Shown piece after piece: positions 13,757 through 28,584 of a DNA stretch of 64,000 nt (its first letter is position 1; the number at the start of each line of letters is the position of its first letter). The notes beneath the pieces were generated by a model, which made no database searches, was not told where the DNA came from, and was given only the letters and a program-made list of their open reading frames with translations. This stretch comes from a virus, in the IMG/VR virus record IMGVR_UViG_3300045988_136773; one strand, given 5' to 3'. The translations under genes and the position numbers were made by a program.

Positions 13757-14062
13757 ATGATTAAAGAAGTTCGACTTTGGAAATCTGATAATATCATTGA
13801 TAAATTCTTTGAAACAAGAGAAGAAGCAGAACTGGCAGATGCTGCTGCTAACAAAGAGTACGAAAAAGATTTGCTAGCACTTATAGATAGAATTGAAACT
13901 CAATACGATGAAAAGCTGGATGCTCTCAAAGTACAGTTTCAGCCAACACTAGATGCTCTGTATCGGGAATTACATGAAATTCGTAGTATAATTTCAGAAG
14001 AGCAGGATTCCAGATCTTATAGTAATGCAGTCAAGGTAAAAATCAGACGTGTGTCAAACTAA
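13757..14062 (+). CDS. hypothetical coiled-coil protein
   Basis: ORF track. Confidence 0.5.
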   Translation: MIKEVRLWKSDNIIDKFFETREEAELADAAANKEYEKDLLALIDRIETQYDEKLDALKVQFQPTLDALYRELHEIRSIISEEQDSRSYSNAVKVKIRRVSN

Positions 14063-14074
14063 ACTTGACAATCA

Positions 14075-14090
14075 TCGTTATATATAATAG
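14075..14090 (+). promoter_or_regulatory. phage promoter-like motif, copy 1 (tcgttatatataatag)
   Basis: One of 11 copies of TCGTTA(T/G)(A/T)(T/G)..., all upstream of transcription units. Confidence 0.55.
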
Positions 14091-14198
14091 AGGATGAAAA
14101 CGACACTGATTCATCCAACATCGTAATTTCGATGTTAAATGTGTGTAGGGAATCTCCAATGAGGAGAGTACTACCGTCTGTGGGTTGGCGGTAGACCA

Positions 14199-14269
14199 GT
14201 CGAAATAGCTTAACTGGATAAAGCACCCGTAATGGGATGTTGTTGGTTCAAATCCAGCTTTCGGCACCA
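14199..14269 (+). tRNA. tRNA-like element with truncated anticodon arm
   Basis: Acceptor gtcgaaa/tttcggc, D arm gctt/aagc, T arm gttgg-ttcaaat-ccagc, encoded CCA. Only 17 nt lie between the D and T arms (ccc-gtaat-ggg hairpin). Confidence 0.45.
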
Positions 14270-14295
14270 AGTCTGATACGTAAGGATGTGCTTAT

Positions 14296-14886
14296 ATGAC
14301 ACCAAATCAACTATTTCAAGATAATCAGAATCTCGTAAAATTCTGCTATAATAAGTACATAAAGCACCGTAGCATATCAGATACAGAAGATATCATGCAG
14401 CAAGGAATGCTGGCACTTTGGAAAGCCGCTCTACAATATGATGAATCCAAGGGAATTGCGTTTTCTACGTATGCTACACATTACATAAGTGGATATATGC
14501 GTCAGTATGTAAGAGATAAATGTAACTTAATACGAATACCAAGAACAGTATTTTTGTCGAACAATGAAAAGCTAATTAACCTAATATCAAATGTAGACTC
14601 ACTTGATAGGACAATCGGCGGTACATCTGATTCAATTACACTTATTGAAAAGATTGAATCAGATCCAGATGACTACAGGAAATTAACTAAGGATCTCATC
14701 GATACGTTTCTACGTACTATTAGAAATAGACGAGATAGAGAAATCATGAGAGTTTATTATTATGCAGTTGCAAACGGAGACAAGGTGACACAGAAACAGA
14801 TTTCAACAAAGTTTCAGGTATGCCGATCTACTGTAGCACGCATAATTGATAAGTACAATTCAGAATTTAGAGAGTTCATTGAATGA
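14296..14886 (+). CDS. sigma-70 family sigma factor (group 3/sporulation-like size)
   Basis: Region 2: LALWKAALQYDESKGIAFSTYATHYISGYMRQYVRD. Region 4: TQKQISTKFQVCRSTVARII. Confidence 0.8.
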   Translation: MTPNQLFQDNQNLVKFCYNKYIKHRSISDTEDIMQQGMLALWKAALQYDESKGIAFSTYATHYISGYMRQYVRDKCNLIRIPRTVFLSNNEKLINLISNVDSLDRTIGGTSDSITLIEKIESDPDDYRKLTKDLIDTFLRTIRNRRDREIMRVYYYAVANGDKVTQKQISTKFQVCRSTVARIIDKYNSEFREFIE

Positions 14887-14923
14887 ACTTCTGAATCATC
14901 AAGTGCAATTTAAGTTTTTCCAC

Positions 14924-14939
14924 TCGTTATATATAGTAG
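14924..14939 (+). promoter_or_regulatory. phage promoter-like motif, copy 2 (tcgttatatatagtag)
   Basis: Lies 25 nt upstream of the first canonical tRNA. Confidence 0.55.
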
Positions 14940-14963
14940 AGCAGAAAATAAGAAATTGCAAAT

Positions 14964-15049
14964 GCTACTATGGCGAAATAGGCAGCACGCTTCGGTCTTA
15001 AAAACCGATGGGGCAACCCGTGCCAGTTCGAGTCTGGCTAGTAGCACCA
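14964..15049 (+). tRNA. tRNA-Leu(TAA), type II
   Basis: Acceptor gctacta/tagtagc, anticodon stem tcggt/accga, loop cttaaaa, long variable arm, A73, CCA encoded. Confidence 0.85.
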
Positions 15050-15052
15050 AAT

Positions 15053-15140
15053 GGGTGAATGTGACCAGTTGGCGAAGTCGGCAGACTGTAAATCTGTTAC
15101 ATTAGAAACATCGTAGGTTCGATTCCTACTTCACCCACCA
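15053..15140 (+). tRNA. tRNA-Tyr(GTA), type II
   Basis: Acceptor gggtgaa/ttcaccc, stem gcaga/tctgt, loop ctgtaaa, long variable arm, CCA. Confidence 0.85.
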
Positions 15141-15365
15141 TTAATAAATTCTTTTAGAAATTAAGGAGCCAATAAAATTTCTTTAACGAGTTTATTGTGA
15201 AATCTGTAGAAAGGAATGAATTAGTAAATGTATATTGAATTTGAATTTCGATTAAGACCTGAGTTACCAAGTTCATCTCGCCCAAGAAAACTTGGCTCTA
15301 GATAAGATTGATAATCGAATCTATGCTGCAGAATAGATTTTGTAGATCTTATCTAGTGAATATAA

Positions 15366-15440
15366 GCACCATTCGTATAATGGATAATACACAAGACTTC
15401 CAATCTTGGAATGAGAGTTCGATTCTCTTATGGTGCTCCA
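15366..15440 (+). tRNA. tRNA-Gly(TCC)
   Basis: Acceptor gcaccat/atggtgc, stem caaga/tcttg, loop cttccaa (anticodon TCC), discriminator T, CCA. Confidence 0.8.
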
Positions 15441-15547
15441 AAACCTTGATGCAGATTAATCAGTTACTTCTTCTGTAAGAAATTCTCTGTTTTATGATTA
15501 ATGAAGGCAAGTCTTTTAGACTGATTAAAATATACTCAAGGTAGTAT

Positions 15548-15634
15548 GGAGAGTTGTGATAATTGGTAGTCAGATGGTCTTGAAAACCATTGTTCAGAAA
15601 TGAATTCAGGGTTCGAGTCCCTGGCTCTCCGCCA
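15548..15634 (+). tRNA. tRNA-Ser(TGA), type II, copy 1
   Basis: Acceptor ggagagt/gctctcc, stem atggt/accat, loop cttgaaa, long variable arm, G73, CCA. Confidence 0.8.
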
Positions 15635-15773
15635 GCCATTGATGGCATCCTTTCAAACTATTTGTTATTGGTTGAAATTCCTATCATTGTTTATTAATTT
15701 AATCAATGATAAAATGGCTATATGAGAATACGTTCATGTCGTTTAGCTGTTTTAACTAAATTCTCAAATATAA

Positions 15774-15849
15774 TCTTCCATAGCTCAGTCGGTAGAGCAT
15801 GCGGCTGTTAACCGCACGGTCATTGGTTCGAGTCCAATTGGAAGAGCCA
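15774..15849 (+). tRNA. tRNA-Asn(GTT)
   Basis: Acceptor tcttcca/tggaaga, D arm gctc-agtcggta-gagc, stem tgcgg/ccgca, loop ctgttaa, CCA. Confidence 0.85.
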
Positions 15850-15895
15850 TTAAAGATAAGAAATTCTTAGTTCATAAGTCTTATCTTTATTATAT

Positions 15896-15971
15896 TGAGG
15901 TATCGGCAAGTGGTAAGCCAGCAGGTTTTGATCCTGCCATTCCGTTGGTTCGAATCCAGCTACCTCAACCA
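15896..15971 (+). tRNA. tRNA-Gln(TTG), copy 1
   Basis: Acceptor tgaggta/tacctca, stem gcagg/cctgc, loop ttttgat, CCA. Confidence 0.8.
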
Positions 15972-16051
15972 TTTGGGAAGTTATAGAAATTTAGAAGTAT
16001 GGTTTATATGGGCTATAACTAGTAATAAAAGTGGTTAGTTATTACTTAAAT

Positions 16052-16129
16052 CCGGATGTAATTCAGTTTGGTTAGAATGCTTGTTTTGGGAACAAGATGC
16101 CGCAGGTTCGAGTCCTGTCATCCGGACCA
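16052..16129 (+). tRNA. tRNA-Pro(TGG), copy 1
   Basis: Acceptor ccggatg/catccgg, stem cttgt/acaag, loop tttggga, CCA. Confidence 0.85.
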
Positions 16130-16176
16130 TTAGATACTTAATGTATCTATTATTATTCATTTAATATGAATAATTT

Positions 16177-16252
16177 GTGGCTTTAACTCAGTTGGTAGAG
16201 TATCACACTTTTAATGTGAGAGTCATGGGTTCAAGTCCCATAAGTCACACCA
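16177..16252 (+). tRNA. tRNA-Lys(TTT)
   Basis: Acceptor gtggctt/aagtcac, stem tcaca/tgtga, loop cttttaa, CCA. Confidence 0.85.
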
Positions 16253-16719
16253 AGAGCGTAGGTTTGAGATCATGCTCTATTGCCGAAGTCTGGGTACCTT
16301 GTAGTAAGCCTACACAATACAGGGCAGCATGGATGCTATATATGCCATATAAATTGAAACAAATGACAGAAGAAACGAATGAAATGATGTATGCCGTGAT
16401 GTTTTAATTAAGTATGTAGTATCTAAATAGCGGCTAAAATCCAAGCGGTTAGAACAAAGTTCTAATGGGTAATTGGGAATCAGTAGTGGTGCAATGGACT
16501 CTGATAGGTAAGGTAGAGGTTAGGGTGAGACCTTACACAATTGCGTATACGTAATCTATCAACTAATATCTTGGTTTGGGTGATCTATATATCGGGATCA
16601 TTACGAATCGGATAGACACTGGATTGTACAGATCCATCCATGAAAGTTGGACGTTTGAAGAAAACCATATTGTACTAGATGGTATACTCCATAGCATGCC
16701 ACGATAAAGGCATGCATAA
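16253..16719 (+). ncRNA. candidate large structured RNA A (unclassified)
   Basis: 467 nt with no credible ORF, inside the tRNA operon. At least 7 clean helices seen by eye, e.g. 16449-55/16459-65, 16508-14/16530-36, 16550-55/16600-05, 16694-700/16709-15. Confidence 0.35.
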
Positions 16720-16796
16720 GGGATATTAGCTCAATTGGTCAGAGCTCCCGGCTCATAACCGGATGGTTATAGGTTCAAGTCCTATATATCCCACCA
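16720..16796 (+). tRNA. tRNA with CAT anticodon (Met or Ile2; undetermined)
   Basis: Acceptor gggatat/atatccc, D arm gctc-aattggtc-agagc, loop ctcataa, CCA. Confidence 0.8.
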
Positions 16797-16919
16797 GCAG
16801 GCCTTGCACACCTGCAAATAACTTGTGTGATTGTGCTTGATTGTACAATTTCATGGTGACATCCTTTCGTATATTGAGAATTACAACTATAGCCGTCTTG
16901 CTTGACATACAACGGTTAT

Positions 16920-16967
16920 ACTCTGAGCAGGTTAGCAGTCAATTCAGTTCGATTCTGAATCAGAGTT
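16920..16967 (+). other. acceptor/T-arm minihelix (tRNA remnant or tRNA-like processing element)
   Basis: Perfect 7-bp actctga/tcagagt closes a T arm ttcag-ttcgatt-ctgaa. Only 16 unstructured nt lie in between. Confidence 0.4.
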
Positions 16968-16975
16968 CTAAATAC

Positions 16976-17062
16976 GCAAGGTTGTGATAATTGGTAGTCG
17001 AGCGGTCTTGAAAATCGCTGTCCGGTAACGGATTCAGGGTTCGAGTCCCTGACCTTGCGCCA
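16976..17062 (+). tRNA. tRNA-Ser(TGA), type II, copy 2
   Basis: Acceptor gcaaggt/accttgc, stem gcggt/atcgc, loop cttgaaa, G73, CCA. Clear paralog of 15548..15634. Confidence 0.8.
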
Positions 17063-17688
17063 CGTAGTATCTTGACAATCGAATATTGTATTGTGTGTAT
17101 GCAGCAACTCAGTGCAGATAGTTTAACCAACTTGCTGAGAATTTGTCTGTAAATCAAGTAGATAGCATATTAACTGATAAGCTCGTTGCTATAATCGGCA
17201 GTATTGGTAACATATTGTTGAGGATTGAAAACAGTCTCTTGGTGACAAATGTGCTGACATTACTGTACACAAAATCACGGAATCTTGTCGCTGTGGAAAT
17301 AGATACTTGTAAAATACTACAAGTGGAATCCTAGTTAGGTGTAAGCTGATTACTTATGCAAACCTAGGAAATATCAAAACACAGTCTTACTTGCACTGAA
17401 CCTAGGAAACTAGGGTATAAGATGAGATTCTGGTTCGAGTAGCCCAATGTGCAAGGAGAAATTATATGAATGGATATAATTATAAAATTCTGAATGGTTC
17501 GGGTGAAAGTTGCAAGTAACCAATCTTGTGTAGGATTTGACGTATGCTGGGACAAGAAGCTAAGGGTCGCTCCCAAACGCTCAGACTTGTTTCCCTAGTG
17601 GATGAATATATGTGCGGTAAAACAGTTGGTACGGCGAAGGTCGGTTGCATATTCACAATACAGTATTTGATTGTTGAGATATTGAGAT
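17063..17688 (+). ncRNA. candidate large structured RNA B (unclassified)
   Basis: 626 nt between tRNA-Ser and tRNA-Gln; only short spurious ORFs. Helices include 17305-10/17319-24 and 17549-56/17586-95. aacctaggaaa is repeated at about 17361 and 17399. Confidence 0.35.
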
Positions 17689-17764
17689 TGGACTATAGTC
17701 AAGTGGTAAGACAACGGACTTTGACTCCGTCATTCCGCTGGTTCAAATCCAGCTAGTCCAACCA
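17689..17764 (+). tRNA. tRNA-Gln(TTG), copy 2
   Basis: Acceptor tggacta/tagtcca, stem acgga/tccgt, loop ctttgac, CCA. Confidence 0.8.
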
Positions 17765-18114
17765 GCAGGATAAGTGGTTTTTCTCAATTTTTAACGAACC
17801 TGCACAAAATCGGAAAAACAATTGATGACATTCGGAAAGACGAACGCTGGTTTTAGAGCAAATGTGGTTCCAACGTAAACAAATAAACAGGGATATGCAG
17901 CGAGGCGGACTTAAACGTCAACCAAGTAGTGTCAGCGTAGCGAGATGATATGCATTCACTTCACAGGGTATAGGTCGTTTAACCTGTGAAGAACGGCCAG
18001 CAGGGGCAGGACCTGCACACTACACCAGCTGTAAATGGTGCTTTTCTCAATTTCTAATTACCAGCCGATAAAGTAGGAGAAAATTGATGACATTCTGGAA
18101 AGACAGATATTAAT
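17765..18114 (+). ncRNA. candidate structured RNA C, flanked by about 63-nt imperfect direct repeats
   Basis: Repeats 17778-17842 and 18042-18104 share ttttctcaattt and aattgatgacattc(g/t)ggaaagac. The core has a 9-bp hairpin cttcacagg/cctgtgaag. Confidence 0.3.
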
Positions 18115-18190
18115 GCTTCGATAGCTCAGTAGGTAGAGCAGGGGACTGAAAATCCCCGTGTCATTGGTTCGATTCCAGTTCGGAGCACCA
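18115..18190 (+). tRNA. tRNA-Phe(GAA)
   Basis: Acceptor gcttcga/tcggagc, stem gggga/tcccc, loop ctgaaaa, CCA. Confidence 0.85.
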
Positions 18191-18199
18191 AAACCAAAT

Positions 18200-18276
18200 C
18201 CGGATGTAACTCAGTTTGGTAGAGTGCTTGCTTTGGGAGCAAGATGCCACAGGTTCGATCCCTGCCATTCGGACCA
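18200..18276 (+). tRNA. tRNA-Pro(TGG), copy 2
   Basis: Acceptor ccggatg/cattcgg, stem cttgc/gcaag, loop tttggga, CCA. Confidence 0.85.
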
Positions 18277-18360
18277 TCATGCTGATTCTTTTCAGTTCTA
18301 TCAGCTAAGCCAAAAACTGAAAATGTATTATGGTATCCAAATCACATAAGAGCTGAATAT

Positions 18361-18446
18361 GTCGCTGTGGTGGAATGGTAGACACGATGAATTCAAAATT
18401 CATTGGCTTAAATGTCGTATCGGTTCGAGTCCGGTCAGCGGCACCA
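18361..18446 (+). tRNA. tRNA-Leu(CAA), type II
   Basis: Acceptor gtcgctg/cagcggc, stem atgaa/ttcat, loop ttcaaaa, long variable arm, A73, CCA. Confidence 0.85.
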
Positions 18447-18640
18447 GTGCTGATAAATTTAATGAGGGCATAAGTTCAAGTTAAACCCTGTGAATGAGGT
18501 TAGGACTTGTGCACCAATAGTCTGTGGAAACAAATTTCCGTGAGGTTGTATCAGTTATATCTGATATGTAAAACTAGGTCGTGAGCAGCGGGATTGCTAT
18601 CAAACCAGCAAGCAGGGTGGATAAGCCTTGCAACTCAGCA
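18447..18640 (+). ncRNA. candidate structured RNA D, closed by a long-range helix
   Basis: gtgctga (18447-53) pairs with tcagcac (18633-39), followed by an A-run. No ORF. Confidence 0.3.
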
Positions 18641-18984
18641 CAAAAAAATGTCAGTTCCTTCAGAATTATTGACATTGGTGTTACCTCCAGTAACCTATAA
18701 AAAATGATCAGGAGCTGACATTATAAGGTGAATATATCTAGTGAGATATGCGTAGGTTGCAAACTACAATTATCAACAACATAGTGACATAGATACAACA
18801 CATGATAAAATATGATAGTTGTTATGTCGGAGTTGCAACGATGGTGTATCAGCATCATATGGTTCATGTAAAGGATGAATCAGATCGAAGGATGATAGAA
18901 GATATTCTGCATACCTGGCTGTTAATCTGTTGGAAGGTGCAAGTCCTTTATTCATCTCCAATATTATTTTCTAAGGAGAACGAT

Positions 18985-19440
18985 ATGAATCCATTTATGG
19001 AATTGGCAGTGTTAGAAGCACTTGAAGGTATCGAATTAGGCCATGGTGGACCATTCGGAGCTGTTATCGTCAAAGACGGTAAAGTTATAAGCAGAGCTCA
19101 TAACATGGTGATTGTTAACAATGATCCAACTGCTCATGGTGAAATTCAAGCAATTAGATCTGCATGTAAGAAACTCAATAGATTTGATCTAACAGGTTGT
19201 GAAATTTACACTACTGGATATCCTTGTCCAATGTGTTTTTGTGCTATTCTTTGGTCAAACATTGATAAGGTGTATTATGGTTGTAATACATCTGATGCAG
19301 AAATAATCGGATTTCGTGAAAAACAGTTTTATGATTCTATTCCTGCTAAGATGCAAGAGATCTGTCATGAAATAGATAGACAAGAATGTTTATCTATTTA
19401 CAACACTTACAACAATATGTCAGATGCTACTAATTACTAG
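18985..19440 (+). CDS. guaD: GuaD-type (CDA-fold) guanine/nucleobase deaminase
   Basis: GGPFGAVIVKDGKVI...NDPTAHGEIQAIRSAC...GYPCPMCFCAILW closely follows remembered B. subtilis GuaD. ATG 18985 follows aaggag. Confidence 0.7.
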   Translation: MNPFMELAVLEALEGIELGHGGPFGAVIVKDGKVISRAHNMVIVNNDPTAHGEIQAIRSACKKLNRFDLTGCEIYTTGYPCPMCFCAILWSNIDKVYYGCNTSDAEIIGFREKQFYDSIPAKMQEICHEIDRQECLSIYNTYNNMSDATNY

Positions 19441-19471
19441 TGTATTCAAGCTGATTTAACAATCAGCATAT

Positions 19472-19553
19472 GCAGATGTGGTGAAAGCGGCAGCCACATA
19501 GATTGAGTTCTAGCCTTTGTAGGATGCAGGTTCAAATCCTGCCATCTGCACCA
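19472..19553 (+). tRNA. Leu-like type II tRNA with a 6-nt anticodon loop
   Basis: Acceptor gcagatg/catctgc, A73, CCA, long variable arm. Anticodon arm (a)taga-ttgagt-tcta(g): 4 bp plus an A.G mismatch, 6-nt loop (possible GAG). Confidence 0.5.
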
Positions 19554-19560
19554 TTAAATT

Positions 19561-19649
19561 GCTGATATGTCCGAGAGGTTTATGGAGCTGGTCATGAAAA
19601 TCAGTGATATCGCAAGATACCGTAGGTTCGAATCCTACTATCAGCACCA
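19561..19649 (+). tRNA. type II Ser-like tRNA, TGA anticodon, A at position 33
   Basis: Acceptor gctgata/tatcagc, Ser-like D arm tgtccgagaggtt, stem ctggt/atcag, loop catgaaa (A33 instead of U33), A73, CCA. Confidence 0.55.
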
Positions 19650-19738
19650 AATGTGACGAAGGAAGAAACGCAACTTATTTCCTGATGCTAATATACCATT
19701 AGGAAATCTGGGGATTTGCTGACGGTCGTCACATTATC
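19650..19738 (+). ncRNA. candidate small structured RNA E1
   Basis: 10-bp closing helix aatgtgacga/tcgtcacatt encloses alternative tttcct/aggaaa hairpins. Confidence 0.3.
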
Positions 19739-19833
19739 AGATAGGCTGTATTCTCAGTCCTCCGGTTTAGTCCGGCGTTGTCTTTAGGTTTGGATAACTT
19801 ATTGGCATAAACCTCTACGATAAAGAGGCACTT

Positions 19834-19937
19834 GCGAGGTTGGTGGAATAGGAAGACGCACCGTGAAGAACGGCGAGAAGAGATAATCACGTGATAATGC
19901 TTCTCACATCATGGTTCGAGTCCAGGACCTCGCTCCA
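19834..19937 (+). tRNA. tRNA-like RNA with about 31-nt variable arm and aberrant anticodon loop
   Basis: Acceptor gcgaggt/acctcgc, T arm catgg-ttcgagt-ccagg, T73, CCA. Anticodon arm ccgt-gaaga-acgg (5-nt loop) or tgaagaa without U33. Variable arm gagaag...cttctc contains the palindrome atcacgtgat. Confidence 0.4.
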
Positions 19938-20245
19938 GAGACACAAAGTAAAGTGAAAGTACTCGTGCAAAGATTACAAACACTGAGGTAAAATCACGGA
20001 GCTACTTGACATTAAATTAAGTAGTGAAGAAGTGAGTGTATTAGTAGCTTTATCACCATAGTATGGTTAGAATGGCTGTTGCTAGGACGATATATTAAGC
20101 AACATATTCAGACTTGCAGTGAATATTGTCCCAGCTATTCCTAGTGTTTAGAGGTATTGTAAAAAGTACCTTGCTTATGCTATTGAAAGACTATAGCAAA
20201 ACAGCAGAAAGCTTTTCGTCCGGCTATTACGAAAAATAGTCATAT
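19938..20245 (+). ncRNA. ORF-free spacer E2 (possible structured RNA)
   Basis: 308 nt without an ORF, between the tRNA-like RNA and tRNA-Leu(TAG). Structure not resolved by eye. Confidence 0.2.
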
Positions 20246-20330
20246 GCGGATATGGTGAAATTGGCAGACACGTTAGATTTAGGTTCTAATGCCGTAAGGT
20301 GTGCAGGTTCAAATCCTGTTATCCGCACCA
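20246..20330 (+). tRNA. tRNA-Leu(TAG), type II
   Basis: Acceptor gcggata/tatccgc, stem ttaga/tctaa, loop tttaggt, long variable arm, A73, CCA. Confidence 0.85.
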
Positions 20331-20377
20331 TCAGACCGATTCTGTTTCCATGCAGGTCTGAGTTTACCTCCTATTTG

Positions 20378-20427
20378 AAATAACACCGAACAGGCAGCCG
20401 ATAGCTTGTTCGGTGTTATTTTTTTTG
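20378..20427 (+). terminator. intrinsic terminator closing the tRNA operon
   Basis: 14-bp stem aataacaccgaaca/tgttcggtgttatt followed by T8. Confidence 0.8.
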
Positions 20428-20579
20428 TGTTAATCCATATAGAATAACTTAACTTACAGTTTGAGGTCTTTGTGATCACTAGTGGTGCGTTGTATAGATA
20501 TAAAGATGAATCTAATGTATATGATTACTCAGTTATATGCAAAAACTGCGTAATGTAATAATTTTCCATGTCAAACCAA

Positions 20580-20595
20580 TCGTTATACATAGTAG
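20580..20595 (+). promoter_or_regulatory. phage promoter-like motif, copy 3 (tcgttatacatagtag)
   Basis: 48 nt upstream of ATG 20643. Confidence 0.5.
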
Positions 20596-20642
20596 ATTAT
20601 AGTAGCATAATCTTATTATAGAATCTACTGGAGGTATTTAAG

Positions 20643-20873
20643 ATGACATTGATGGAGTTACAAGATATTCTTGGACAAAGAATTCAGATTGCGAATGATA
20701 CATCAATTACAACTGATGTAAAGCAGAAAGAAAACGAGGTATCTCAAACAATCGTAGCATTAGCAAAACAGATGATTAATAACGCAGATGTAGTTCTGAG
20801 AGCTGAGAAGCTATGCTGTGAATGTGATTTGAAACAATCCAATATTGAAAGGATGATAGGTCATGAGCGGTAA
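20643..20873 (+). CDS. hypothetical protein
   Basis: ORF track; RBS ctggagg. Confidence 0.6.
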   Translation: MTLMELQDILGQRIQIANDTSITTDVKQKENEVSQTIVALAKQMINNADVVLRAEKLCCECDLKQSNIERMIGHER

Positions 20874-21690
20874 ACCTTATACTGACCAGCAGGTTGAATT
20901 CATAAAATCACATTGTTCTAAGATGACAGCTGCACAGCTCGTAGATGCACTTAATCAAAAATTTAATGATACTCGCACTAAAAAGGGATTACTATCATTT
21001 ATGCAATCACATGGATTACATACAGTTGTACCTAAACCTGTAAGGCTTGAAATTTTTACAGATATTCAGAAATCTTATATGCAGGAGCATGGACCTTATA
21101 TGAGTCGTAAGGATCTTACAGAAAAATTAAATACACAGTTTAATATCAATGTTTCTGTACGACAAGTTAAAAGCTGGTGTTACACCAACAAAATTAAATC
21201 ACCAAACGGAAACGGAAGATTTACCACTGAAACATCACCACGATGGGCAAAAGGACTATCGAACTCTGAATTTAGATCGCATTATACAGATAAGTCATTT
21301 TCAAATCTGATATCGCCTATGATTGAGTCGAATAAAAAGTATAAAATGGGAGATGAAATTATACGTCATGACATTCCGTACATTGTTATAAACAACGATT
21401 TTGGGCATGGTATTGATGCACGAATTAAAAGAAAATCTATATATGTATGGGAGCGTCAATATGGAGAGATTTCATCAAAATCCATGATAATACATTTAGA
21501 CAATGATAAAATGAACTGTAATATTGAAAATCTCATGTGCATTCCAACAAAGTACAGACCATGGTTTATGCATAATTCCTGGTGGGATGCCCCAAAAGAA
21601 ATAAAAGAAGTAGCGGTAAAATGGTGTGAACTTTATTACGCTTTAAACGAGAATAATCTTGATAGAAAGGGTGCTGATTTTAATGCATAA
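20863..21690 (+). CDS. HNH homing-type endonuclease with duplicated N-terminal helical DNA-binding modules
   Basis: IIHLDNDKMNCNIENLMCI (HNH_3-like). N-terminal repeats YTDQQVEFIKSH... / FTDIQKSYMQEH... Confidence 0.7.
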   Translation: MSGKPYTDQQVEFIKSHCSKMTAAQLVDALNQKFNDTRTKKGLLSFMQSHGLHTVVPKPVRLEIFTDIQKSYMQEHGPYMSRKDLTEKLNTQFNINVSVRQVKSWCYTNKIKSPNGNGRFTTETSPRWAKGLSNSEFRSHYTDKSFSNLISPMIESNKKYKMGDEIIRHDIPYIVINNDFGHGIDARIKRKSIYVWERQYGEISSKSMIIHLDNDKMNCNIENLMCIPTKYRPWFMHNSWWDAPKEIKEVAVKWCELYYALNENNLDRKGADFNA

Positions 21691-25746: not shown

Positions 25747-28584
25747 TTACATTGATTGCTTCAATAGAACATCAGCAATACCGCTCATGACATAGTTTAC
25801 ACAAGGTAGTGCAACACTATTTCCCAAAGCCTTATATCTTGCACAGTCAGATTCTTCAGCAGTCCAGTTATCTGGGAATCCTTGTAGGCGTTCACACTCT
25901 AATGGAGTTAGTCTACGGACAACCGATTTATAGTCACATGGATCAGCTACTAATGATTCACTTCCGTCACCATAAAATCCACCTTGGCATGTTAATGTTG
26001 CAAACGTATCACTAGCATCATTAAAATCTGCAAATCCTGACTGTGAAAATACCTCTTTCGATTCCAATATATAAGGTGTATTACCGCCGCCTGTTCCCAT
26101 TTTTGCATTCAATGTCTGACATACATTATCTTTAGATATAGTCAATCTAGAATCCTGTGGGTGATTGTCAATCAGAACTGCGATATTCTGATATGCTGTA
26201 AGTGTAGATGACATATCTTCATCATATGGAAGAGTAGCCATTTTTGCACCCTGTTGGAACTTAAATGCCGCTACATACGGGTGTTTACTGTACTGTAAAA
26301 CAGCTTGGTACCCTTGTCCAGGCTTTCCTCTGCTACACTGTAAAGCACCAGTATGATCTCCAAGCCATACAGCACCATCTTGATTTTCTTTTATGCTATA
26401 TGCAACAGCAGGTCTGTCTATAGTATTTAATGTGTAGCAATAATCTTCTTTCCAACCTTTTCCGTTGCATCCAGCTGTATCTGCACGATCTATACCATTT
26501 CCCTGCAAACAATAGACAGTATCAACTACAACATTTCCACCTTGATTACATGTTGGGTTTGTACCAGATGTATCAATCGTTTTTGCAATATCTGTTTTAT
26601 ATATTCCGCTATCAGGATTATCTGATTTCATTGCATTTGATGTAAAACTACAAATTCCGTAGACAGATTTATCTGAATTTAACTCTTGTCCTGCTGGTTC
26701 AAACTGGTTTGAATCTGATACTCTAGTGCTATTTTCAACTTCTCTGGAAGAATTTTCCCACGGCGTTTGGCTCTGCGGATGATTCCCTCGCAAGCTTTCT
26801 GACTTAAATAATATTTCGCTTGCACATTGTCCTCTAAGATCAACGACAAGGAAGATTCTACGTCTGCGTTGGGGGACTCCCCAATATTGAGCGTCGAGAG
26901 TTCTCCAGGCGATGGAATCGGATTTACCCAGAATTTCTCCTGACTTTGTCCATTTCTCAGGTCTAGCCGCAGGAAGTTTTTCCGAAATGAGTCCACAGAA
27001 TTCTTCGAGGACACATTGGAAGTCGTCTCCGTTGTTGCTACTGATTGCGGCTGAGACGTTTTCCCAAACAATGATTTTTGGATACTCATGATTAGTTACC
27101 TCCAACATTTCTTTAATAACTCGAATCTGTTCCATAAATAATCCGCTTCGAGTAAGTTCAAGATCTATACCGCATTTAGGGCATACCTTTACATCACCAT
27201 TTGCACTAAATGATTCTCCACATTCTGGGCAGTATAGTTTGATGCCACCCTGATTTCCGGCCACGGATAAATCTTGGCAGTTATGAACGACAATACTGTC
27301 TGCAATATAACTCTCATCTTCTTCAACTGAGATATTATATACAGTTTTGATTTCACCAGTTTTTATAACATTTCTGCACTTATACCATTTATGCCCGTTA
27401 TATTCAAGTCCAGTTTTTCTGTTTTTATTATCGTGTACAGCTACGGAATATGTATCATGCTGATTAACAGTTCTTCCTTCAATAACCGTCTTTTCAGGTC
27501 TTTTATAATATGATACGGATGTACTATATCCAAGAGATTCCGCAAGCATTCTGATACCAAGTATAAGCCGTTTACTTATTGATGTCACTTTCATTGATGT
27601 ATCCGACTTTCTCCAGCCGTCTGAGTCCATAATGCCATCAAACAAAATTTCCCTGTATTTATGCGACATAGATAGAGCCCAGCCAGGTATGGTCTTATTG
27701 ATAGCACCTTTACCAAAATTATCAACAAGCCATTTACACAAAACCTGAGATGTAAATTTAACTTTTATAACTGTCCTATCTCGTTCTACGCTGTAATTAT
27801 CGCTCATCTTGGATACTATGTTTATGAGTTCATTTTCTTTATCAGATGAATCACATAAATAGATTGTCCCATAACCTTTACCACTCGGTTTTTCTTTTCT
27901 GAATCCATCTCTTACCCAACCATCACCTATCCAACGTCCAACAAAATACCAAAAATCTTCATTTAGTTCAGGCATAGGTTTTTGATTTAAATTAGAGCTA
28001 TAACCTATTGGAATAATGACAGGTTCAGCAGTAATTGGTGTAGCCCACTGCTTGCTTTCCATATCTATAGCAGATGTCCATTGACCAATATTAACTAGAT
28101 GCTTTTTATATCCTTTGCTGTCTGATATGTTATCCCAAATCCTCTTAATATCAGCACTATAAATAGGATGGTTCGCTGTTGTTTCAATAGTAATATTACC
28201 TTTAAGTAAGTATGTTTCAGCTTGTCTACTACCAGTGGCTGTAACTGGTTTCCATCTTCCTTTATGTGTCAGCACAAGATCTCCAACTTTAATATCTGCG
28301 ATTGGAATATACCCAGCTGCGGTTAAAACCATTGTTTCAGCTGGAAAACAGGGACTACCACCAGTGATGACATCAACAGGCTCTAATTTGTGTCCATCAA
28401 GCTTTGTAATATCACCAACATGTTCCATTTTCGGAAAATGACGTTTTGTAATCCGCATTGGAGCAGGTTCAATCTCTGATGCCCATACAGGATCAAAATT
28501 ATACCAACTGCCAACTAGCTCGAATCCACCTATTCCACTGAATAGCGATCCGAGTTTTATTTTTTGATCTGACAAATAAATCAC
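25747..28584 (-). CDS. DNA (cytosine-5) methyltransferase precursor interrupted by an intein
   Basis: Motif I FSGIGGF; GGSP|C...HN|CQDLSVAG (motif IV split); ENV; QRRRRIF; ...GNSVALP (motif X). Confidence 0.85.
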   Translation of the reverse strand: MIYLSDQKIKLGSLFSGIGGFELVGSWYNFDPVWASEIEPAPMRITKRHFPKMEHVGDITKLDGHKLEPVDVITGGSPCFPAETMVLTAAGYIPIADIKVGDLVLTHKGRWKPVTATGSRQAETYLLKGNITIETTANHPIYSADIKRIWDNISDSKGYKKHLVNIGQWTSAIDMESKQWATPITAEPVIIPIGYSSNLNQKPMPELNEDFWYFVGRWIGDGWVRDGFRKEKPSGKGYGTIYLCDSSDKENELINIVSKMSDNYSVERDRTVIKVKFTSQVLCKWLVDNFGKGAINKTIPGWALSMSHKYREILFDGIMDSDGWRKSDTSMKVTSISKRLILGIRMLAESLGYSTSVSYYKRPEKTVIEGRTVNQHDTYSVAVHDNKNRKTGLEYNGHKWYKCRNVIKTGEIKTVYNISVEEDESYIADSIVVHNCQDLSVAGNQGGIKLYCPECGESFSANGDVKVCPKCGIDLELTRSGLFMEQIRVIKEMLEVTNHEYPKIIVWENVSAAISSNNGDDFQCVLEEFCGLISEKLPAARPEKWTKSGEILGKSDSIAWRTLDAQYWGVPQRRRRIFLVVDLRGQCASEILFKSESLRGNHPQSQTPWENSSREVENSTRVSDSNQFEPAGQELNSDKSVYGICSFTSNAMKSDNPDSGIYKTDIAKTIDTSGTNPTCNQGGNVVVDTVYCLQGNGIDRADTAGCNGKGWKEDYCYTLNTIDRPAVAYSIKENQDGAVWLGDHTGALQCSRGKPGQGYQAVLQYSKHPYVAAFKFQQGAKMATLPYDEDMSSTLTAYQNIAVLIDNHPQDSRLTISKDNVCQTLNAKMGTGGGNTPYILESKEVFSQSGFADFNDASDTFATLTCQGGFYGDGSESLVADPCDYKSVVRRLTPLECERLQGFPDNWTAEESDCARYKALGNSVALPCVNYVMSGIADVLLKQSM
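27280..28350 (-). mobile_element. intein (357 aa) with LAGLIDADG homing-endonuclease domain
   Basis: Begins CFPAETMVLT, ends SIVVHN; +1 residue is the Cys of PCQ. LAGLIDADG-like FVGRWIGDGW and ILFDGIMDSDGW. Confidence 0.8.

Follow-up and report, generated by a model that had tools for sequence, protein, structure and literature searches.

Background

Among the very few natural RNAs known to build closed, protein-free cages is ROOL (Rumen-Originating, Ornate, Large), a large phage RNA with a mean length of 581 nucleotides (nt; Weinberg et al. 2017, PMC5737381). It needs no protein to fold, and its homo-octamer, a hollow cage of D4 symmetry about 280 Å across into which a disordered variable linker points, is held together by kissing loops and A-minor contacts (Kretsch et al. 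2025, PMC12286853). The RNA is reported to be non-essential (PMC12286853). Its co-transcription with transfer RNAs (tRNAs) has already been suggested (PMC5737381) and, according to the part of PMC12515178 that relays the work of Ling et al. 2025, octamers still form when a tRNA precursor is fused to the ROOL 3' end. Here we describe a ROOL within a 64,000-nt stretch of virus DNA from IMG/VR record IMGVR_UViG_3300045988_136773, the whole of which is referred to as the window. The element occupies positions 17084–17662 on the plus strand (+), and the best explanation overall, which we hold with high confidence, is a ROOL encoded among the tRNA genes of an uncultured Bacillota phage, which would be co-transcribed with the tRNAs, processed and self-assembling.

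A full-length ROOL between two tRNA genes

Enclosed exactly between a tRNA-Ser(tga) gene with an encoded CCA (16976–17062, +; ARAGORN, and 47 bits with the Rfam tRNA model) and a tRNA-Gln(ttg) gene (17689–17764, +; ARAGORN) is a spacer of 626 nt (17063–17688). Scanning the whole window with cmscan against Rfam 15 returned a single non-tRNA match, to ROOL (RF03087), at 17084–17662 (+), with a score of 302.7 bits (gathering score 99.1) and E = 1.3e-68. The match is 579 nt long and spans model positions 1–574 of 574, leaving a 5' spacer of 21 nt after the tRNA-Ser 3' end (17063–17083) and a 3' spacer of 26 nt before tRNA-Gln (17663–17688). The model score, and a minimum free energy (MFE) z-score of −2.9, indicate more structure than chance would give. 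Its longest reading frame has 70 amino acids, and the two minus-strand frames (58 and 70 amino acids) gain stop codons in two contigs, L083 and L061, whose ROOLs are 92–94% identical to that of the window.

An earlier note on this DNA, made from the sequence before any database search, had described the spacer as gene-free with short frames only, which holds, and had put it forward as a candidate large ornate RNA, ROOL- or GOLLD-like or of a new class, to be checked by an Infernal scan against Rfam and by covariation in homologues. The scan is unambiguous for the first of these options, the structure is supported by covariation in 26 ROOLs (below), and the ROOL model accounts for the segment end to end, which leaves no room for a new class. 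The spacer is thus a new, fairly divergent example of a known, structurally solved class, one that routine Rfam annotation would pick up, and does not represent a novel type of RNA. A blastn search of the window ROOL against 50,697 GenBank phage records gave no match, which is uninformative on identity because ROOLs are too divergent for blastn.

Fold and conserved motifs

When the cmscan alignment is used to transfer the consensus structure to the window, both partners are present for 149 of the 159 consensus pairs, and 129 of these 149 are canonical. Helix numbers (P) are assigned here from helix order and the text of PMC12286853. Closing the whole RNA is P1, whose 5' strand (17090–17105) forms 16 pairs, 15 of them canonical, with its 3' strand (17644–17659). 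A small hairpin with the stem CUUG/CAAG (17306–17309/17320–17323, within 17306–17323) is probably P7, the loop of which forms a 'daisy-chain' contact in the octamer (PMC12286853); a helix drawn at 17305–17310/17319–17324 in the earlier note is this hairpin.

Following it is P8 (17329–17369), a two-part hairpin of UCCUAG/CUAGGA and GUGUAAG/CUUAUGC with loop L8 at 17346–17352. Within L8 lies the tetranucleotide UGAU (17347–17350), one half of a kissing pair, and in the junction after P8 lies its complement AUCA (17373–17376). The next hairpin is CCUAG-GAAA-CUAGG (17401–17414), which holds the second copy of the 11-mer AACCTAGGAAA. This 11-mer, noted earlier as an internal repeat, is indeed present twice (17361 and 17399), where about 0.05 such pairs are expected by chance per 626 nt; one copy is the 3' strand of the P8 base and the other is the 5' strand plus the GAAA loop of the next hairpin. 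Since the copies sit in different helix strands, the repeat reflects two helices with a common CCUAGG core and no duplication.

Between GCCCAA (17442–17447) and the conserved UUCUGAAUG is a variable linker loop (17448–17487) of low posterior probability in the cmscan alignment, followed by an invariant block, UUCUGAAUG..GGGUGAAAG (17488–17509). The sequence UCUGA within this block is complementary to UCAGA at 17581–17585, corresponding to an earlier proposed pseudoknot with J17/18 (quoted in PMC12286853), and the two blocks proposed to pair, UUCUGAAUG (17488) and CUCAGAC (17580), both match the consensus. The 3'-domain stems (17549–17597) include the long stem that had been drawn at 17549–17556/17586–17595, which proves to be a real element of ROOL, and they are capped by GGG-UCGCU-CCC (17564–17574). 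The loop of this cap is identical in the cmscan alignment to the family consensus L18, GGGUCGCUCCC, and is probably L18, the symmetric kissing loop B6; L18 is highly conserved and makes a symmetric kissing contact in the published structures (PMC12286853). Last is a terminal GNRA-type hairpin, CGGC-GAAG-GUCG (17632–17643), probably P19.

Covariation across 26 ROOLs

Homologues were collected with a degenerate pattern for the most conserved block, TTCTGAATG N2-8 GGGTGAAAG, which matched 110 IMG/VR loci; 100 of them were verified as containing ROOL homologues with an iterated nhmmer profile, and clustering at 95% identity left 25 lineages. Twenty-six representative ROOLs were aligned with MAFFT, and the Rfam structure was projected from the window row. 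As MAFFT is blind to structure, several helices are under-counted and the pairing figures given here under-estimate the true support. In a MAFFT alignment, the window ROOL is 44–64% identical to the collected lineages, except for L083 and L061, which belong to a small clade from gut metagenomes (92–94%).

Projected pairs are occupied by pairing bases in 68.8% of alignment cells, against 53.2% after column shuffling (reached by 0 of 500 shuffles) and at most 47.8% when the 3' partner is slid by 1–3 columns; the covariation score is 0.453, against about 0.19–0.20. Changes on both sides occur in 119 of the 149 pairs. In P1 they affect all 16 pairs, with 85.9% of cells paired, and the terminal hairpin CGGC-GAAG-GUCG (helix 30 of the alignment) has 100% of cells paired, with covariation. 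There are 63 invariant columns, which include the window by construction, and the motifs common to the window and the family are GUGNAGA, GAUA, AAUAGA, GUAUAA, AGUAGCC, UUCUGAAUG, GGGUGAAAG, CUCAGAC and CGAAGG. The linker, at about 17448–17487, is unalignable across the set.

A quaternary feature is the tetranucleotide pair between L8 and J8-6, a covarying pairing that was formerly drawn as a pseudoknot and that corresponds to the inter-subunit bridge B4 in electron cryo-microscopy (PMC12286853). It is paired in 96.2% of cells, compared with 76% for shuffled columns and no more than 56% for slid ones, and takes six forms: UGGC/GCCA, UGGA/UCCA, UGGU/ACCA, UAGC/GCUA, UGAC/GUCA and, in the window, UGAU/AUCA. 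The window pair is perfectly complementary, a lineage-specific double change from the consensus UGGC/GCCA.

Compared with the close relatives L083 and L061, the window ROOL has 42–44 differences. Of those at unpaired positions, 15 of 25 fall in the linker (17458–17487), and 7 of 10 changed canonical pairs are still paired, including a compensatory change of A-U to G-C at 17552/17591 in both relatives. Every sequence determinant that could be checked is intact, which argues for a functional ROOL able to assemble over a remnant.

A pattern scan of genome contigs gave 120 matches, mostly chance, of which the profile filter left 16 real ROOLs. The matches with a listed source record are all from Bacillota, and the genome-borne ROOLs found in the GTDB scan belong to Streptococcus, Faecalibacillus, Erysipelotrichia, Ruminococcus and Clostridia.

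Placement in the tRNA array and proposed maturation

The array comprises 17 plus-strand tRNA genes found by ARAGORN between 14964 and 20330; an eighteenth, at 14199–14266 (+), scores 47.3 bits with Rfam and was missed by ARAGORN. All 18 lie on the same strand as the ROOL, bearing out the co-orientation described earlier. No terminator-like site was found on the plus strand from the array start to 18023, downstream of tRNA-Gln, and the array is closed by an intrinsic terminator at 20377–20422 (+; 19-bp stem with 7 G-C pairs, T-run), which agrees with the strong terminator that had been placed near 20378. Because the ROOL begins 21 nt past the tRNA-Ser CCA end, stops 26 nt ahead of tRNA-Gln and is separated from neither by a terminator, co-transcription and tRNA-type processing are suggested, and release by tRNA maturation would be the simplest reading of the tight placement. 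The covariance-model match and the co-orientation with the tRNAs point to the plus strand as the ROOL strand.

During infection, the ROOL would be transcribed within a polycistronic tRNA precursor, and it would be freed on one side as the tRNA-Ser 3' end matures and on the other as RNase P cuts at tRNA-Gln +1. The 16-bp P1 helix may then protect the trimmed ends, or define the stable ends of the RNA. The released ROOL is expected to self-assemble into a homo-octameric cage, as published for other ROOLs. As to the role of such a cage, our guess, of low confidence, is an accessory part in the way the phage takes over translation, in connection with the tRNAs expressed alongside it; tRNAs, components of the ribosome or other cargo could be sequestered or shielded by the cage.

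Close same-strand tRNA flanks recur in other ROOL lineages, with different tRNAs. While the window has tRNA-Ser 21 nt upstream and tRNA-Gln 26 nt downstream, L083 and L061 have tRNA-Gly at 19 nt and tRNA-Gln at 24 nt, L040 and L058 have tRNA-Gln at 20 nt and tRNA-Gln at 19 nt, L002 has tRNA-Ser at about 0 nt and tRNA-Tyr at about 4 nt, and L092 has tRNA-Asn at 21 nt and tRNA-Tyr at 118 nt. In L040, the tRNA array also contains a transfer-messenger RNA gene (L040:1911–2226, +; tag peptide DNDYFENYLAA).

The phage setting is confirmed by the surrounding genes, which encode a sigma factor, an HNH endonuclease, an SbcC-like ATPase, a DnaB-like helicase and a protein with a PAPS-reductase domain; a primase and a large serine recombinase are suggested by eye. 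G+C content is about 37%. The DnaB-like helicase is at most 31% identical to that of any cultured phage, with best matches in Bacillus phage Flasso and Clostridium phages, and the related contigs come from gut metagenomes, one of them (L169) labelled human gut. Taken together with the hosts of genome-borne ROOLs, these matches make a gut member of the Bacillota the probable host, and the phage is probably from the human gut. A search for relatives through the sigma-factor protein found none in IMG/VR.

The sigma-factor gene (14296–14886, +) ends 78 nt before the first tRNA of the main array. As it lies just upstream, the relevant promoter may be of a non-sigma-70 type. The gene is itself flanked by tRNAs (14199–14266 upstream, the main array downstream) and may share their transcript. 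A promoter belonging to the ROOL itself was considered and is not supported: TTGACA at 17072–17077 has no usable −10 element, and the sigma-70 scan reported none in 17063–17083.

Gain, loss and alternative readings

Several observations weigh against the explanation given above. No promoter was confirmed: the phage promoter previously placed at 14924 is absent from the sigma-70 scan, and by eye there is a weak TTTAAG-17-TATAGT. In the covariance-model register, 20 of the 149 consensus pairs lack canonical partners; most of them cluster in P4 and around the P17 region/3'-domain stem, where an alternative local register is possible, the one drawn in the earlier note. About 40 ROOLs, on prophage-like contigs of about 38 kb, have no same-strand tRNA in their fetched flanks, and tRNA linkage is thus lineage-specific and inessential to ROOL biology. 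These tRNA-less ROOLs (among L004–L106) form a tight cluster of more than 95% mutual identity, and the same type occurs in a Streptococcus parasanguinis genome (L239).

Also on this side of the balance are a related phage array and a near-identical short contig, both without ROOL. L329 is 95.6% identical to the window over 1.2 kb (18356–19551) and has an SbcC-like homologue upstream. The 2-kb contig L163, 97.5% identical to 16189–17048, jumps from the tRNA-Ser T-loop to the tRNA-Phe 3' end (18166), and so lacks 17049–18165, comprising the ROOL, tRNA-Gln, a 350-nt gap and most of tRNA-Phe, and leaving a hybrid Ser/Phe tRNA. Its junction (L163:1040–1260, −) falls in the T-loop sequence GGTTCGA(G/T)TCC, which is shared by 16920–17100 and 18100–18280, and is either a natural deletion by tRNA–tRNA recombination or an assembly chimera at very low coverage (1.4×).

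Homology between the window and L061, L083, L164 and L169 covers 17055–17764 at 91–93% identity, that is, the 5' spacer, ROOL, 3' spacer and tRNA-Gln, and stops at the tRNA-Gln 3' end, while the upstream tRNA is Gly(ccc) in these four contigs and Ser(tga) in the window. Searching the window proteins against the fetched flanks of L061 and L083 found no shared genes, so the 92–94% identity of the ROOLs marks a shared cassette and, as far as seen, no shared genome backbone. Moving with tRNA-Gln and absent from L329 and L163, the ROOL is an accessory, exchangeable and dispensable module, which fits its reported non-essentiality (PMC12286853). Across the related arrays L061, L083, L164, L169, L328 and L329, the same pieces occur in different orders, as fits cassette shuffling at tRNA ends.

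A bolder reading, to which we give a low probability, is that the array is built of 'structured RNA plus tRNA' cassettes that shuffle between phages through recombination at tRNA ends, that the ROOL works with its linked tRNA, and that two further conserved spacers described below are new tRNA-linked RNA classes. The cassettes would be ROOL with tRNA-Gln, a 295-nt RNA (16425–16719) with tRNA-Met, and a 305-nt RNA (19941–20245) with a tRNA of the Leu(tag) type. If this were true, the ROOL would be a cage or scaffold carrying, displaying or timing the release of phage tRNAs.

Somewhat less likely still is that the ROOL stays tethered to tRNA-Gln and acts in cis, either as a cage showing eight tRNA-Gln precursors or as a structured 5' leader controlling maturation. 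That ROOL and tRNA-Gln move as a unit in four contigs with a different upstream tRNA speaks for such tethering, as do the spacer of merely 26 nt between them, the way in which the two other conserved spacers are each tied to one downstream tRNA (tRNA-Met; tRNA-Leu(tag)-type), and the octamerization of an engineered ROOL with a 3' tRNA precursor, as far as PMC12515178 relays it. RNase P, however, normally cleaves accessible tRNA 5' leaders, many ROOLs have no neighbouring tRNA, and where there is one it varies by lineage (Gln, Tyr, Asp, Ile, Pro, Ser).

That the element is a decaying, non-functional remnant, or a structured spacer hitch-hiking in the tRNA array, is improbable. Its absence from L329 and L163 and the 20 non-canonical pairs would suit decay, but the match is full length at three times the gathering score, every family-invariant column is present, the quaternary kissing pair is preserved by a double compensatory change, and the changes that separate it from L083 and L061 spare helices or leave them paired and accumulate in the linker.

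A GOLLD RNA, or a large ornate class distinct from ROOL, can be set aside almost entirely: size and the phage and tRNA context would also fit GOLLD (PMC5737381; PMC12286853), but a more permissive Rfam scan of 14000–21000 (E ≤ 1) added nothing credible, with no GOLLD and only chance-level matches outside tRNA and ROOL, and no GOLLD match was found at E ≤ 10 in 19650–20245 or 16253–16719. A small protein is rejected just as firmly, for although plus-strand frames of 63 amino acids (17143–17334, start codon TTG) and 34 amino acids stay open in L083 and L061, with 3–4 and 7 amino-acid changes, open frames carry little information at 92–94% identity, the few differences in the 63-amino-acid frame mostly change the amino acid, both minus-strand frames gain stops, and the conservation has the pattern of RNA helices.

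Neighbouring conserved spacers

Lying between tRNA-Lys(ttt) (16177–16252) and tRNA-Met (16720–16796) is a conserved spacer of about 295 nt (16425–16719, +), which we refer to here as RNA-2 and consider a candidate for a new structured RNA. Rfam gives no match to it at E ≤ 10, and it is found in six contigs of two lineages (the window and L163; L061, L083, L164 and L169), each time immediately ahead of tRNA-Met. Identity between the lineages is about 69%, 12 predicted pairs are maintained through changes on both sides, and the plus-strand MFE z-score is −3.6. Two probes for it, the 15-mer CCATGAAAGTTGGAC and the pattern AAAATCCAAGC..GGGTAAT, were discarded, their matches being almost all chance, with only L061 and L083 as true homologues.

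A second candidate new RNA, referred to here as RNA-3, is a spacer of about 305 nt (19941–20245, +) upstream of tRNA-Leu(tag) (20246–20330), for which Rfam likewise gave no match. It is 84–96% identical in L169, L329, L328 and L163, and in every case a tRNA 3' end immediately precedes it and a tRNA-Leu(tag) homologue comes after it. Most changes are compatible with the predicted helices, and double changes occur in only 2 pairs. Upstream of it in the window is an apparent uncalled tRNA 3' remnant (GGTTCGAGTCC...CTCCA, about 19913–19940).

A third stretch, an open reading frame (ORF)-free gap of 355 nt (18447–18801, +), has an MFE z-score that reaches −3.55 for the plus strand alone. It is present in L329 at 95.6% identity, and roughly its first 190 nt are present in L328 at 93.8%, fused there directly to the RNA-3 homologue. 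The gap has no Rfam match in the 7-kb scan, and blastn of RNA-2 and of the gaps 18447–18801 and 19650–20245 against the 50,697 GenBank phage records gave no match.

Other features of the window

The array at 14964–20330 is redundant, with three tRNA-Ser(tga), two tRNA-Gln(ttg) and two tRNA-Pro(tgg) genes, and leucine anticodons taa, caa and tag. At 19472–19553 (+) is a tRNA whose CTA anticodon would make it an amber suppressor; it is called 'Pyl' by ARAGORN, scores 38.7 bits with the Rfam tRNA model and is similar to tRNA-Leu(tag) genes, with 77% identity to the one in L061. No sign of TAG recoding that might explain this tRNA was seen in the 64-kb window, where 12 of 55 long ORFs terminate in TAG and in-frame TAGs are confined to the edges of ORFs.

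Inside the array is an ORF with a CMP/dCMP-deaminase fold (18802–19440, +, with the start probably near 18982; Pfam PF00383, E = 2e-24), 95.6% conserved in L329. Its best NCBIfam match is the tRNA adenosine deaminase TadA, far under the cut-off (67 against 150 bits), and it is possibly a tRNA- or nucleotide-editing enzyme co-expressed with the phage tRNAs. Farther away, at 25747–28584 (−), is a 945-amino-acid ORF resembling DNA cytosine methyltransferases, with an apparent intein- or homing-endonuclease-like insert (CFPAETMV...VVHNC) seen by eye in the translation.

Implications and comparison with known systems

Wedged about 20 nt from tRNAs on both sides, the locus predicts the ends of a ROOL and its route of maturation, and natural relatives with and without the cassette make it a clean natural test case. 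The lineage-specific kissing code UGAU/AUCA might serve to probe whether distinct ROOLs are kept from assembling with one another. Conserved neighbouring spacers without an Rfam match suggest that phage tRNA arrays hold more structured RNAs.

The processing logic proposed for the window ROOL is the same as that of the 'species 1 and 2' RNAs of phage T4, stable non-tRNA RNAs that are co-transcribed with the phage tRNAs and freed by tRNA-processing enzymes; these are much smaller than ROOL and are not known to oligomerize. Like the window ROOL, GOLLD is a large ornate phage or prophage RNA beside tRNA islands and builds an RNA-only cage (Weinberg et al. 2009; PMC12286853), but its sequence and fold are unrelated, its length exceeds 800 nt and its cage is a 14-mer (PMC12286853). 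From most collected ROOLs, the window member differs in its identity of 44–64%, its UGAU/AUCA tetranucleotide and its unusually tight embedding, 21 and 26 nt from the tRNAs, and, whereas the octamer has been seen for other ROOLs, this one is known from its sequence. With the family it shares the full-length model match, the P1-closed multi-junction fold, the invariant motifs and the L8/J8-6 complementarity, as well as its size of about 580 nt, the variable linker inside it and a phage setting with a tRNA array.

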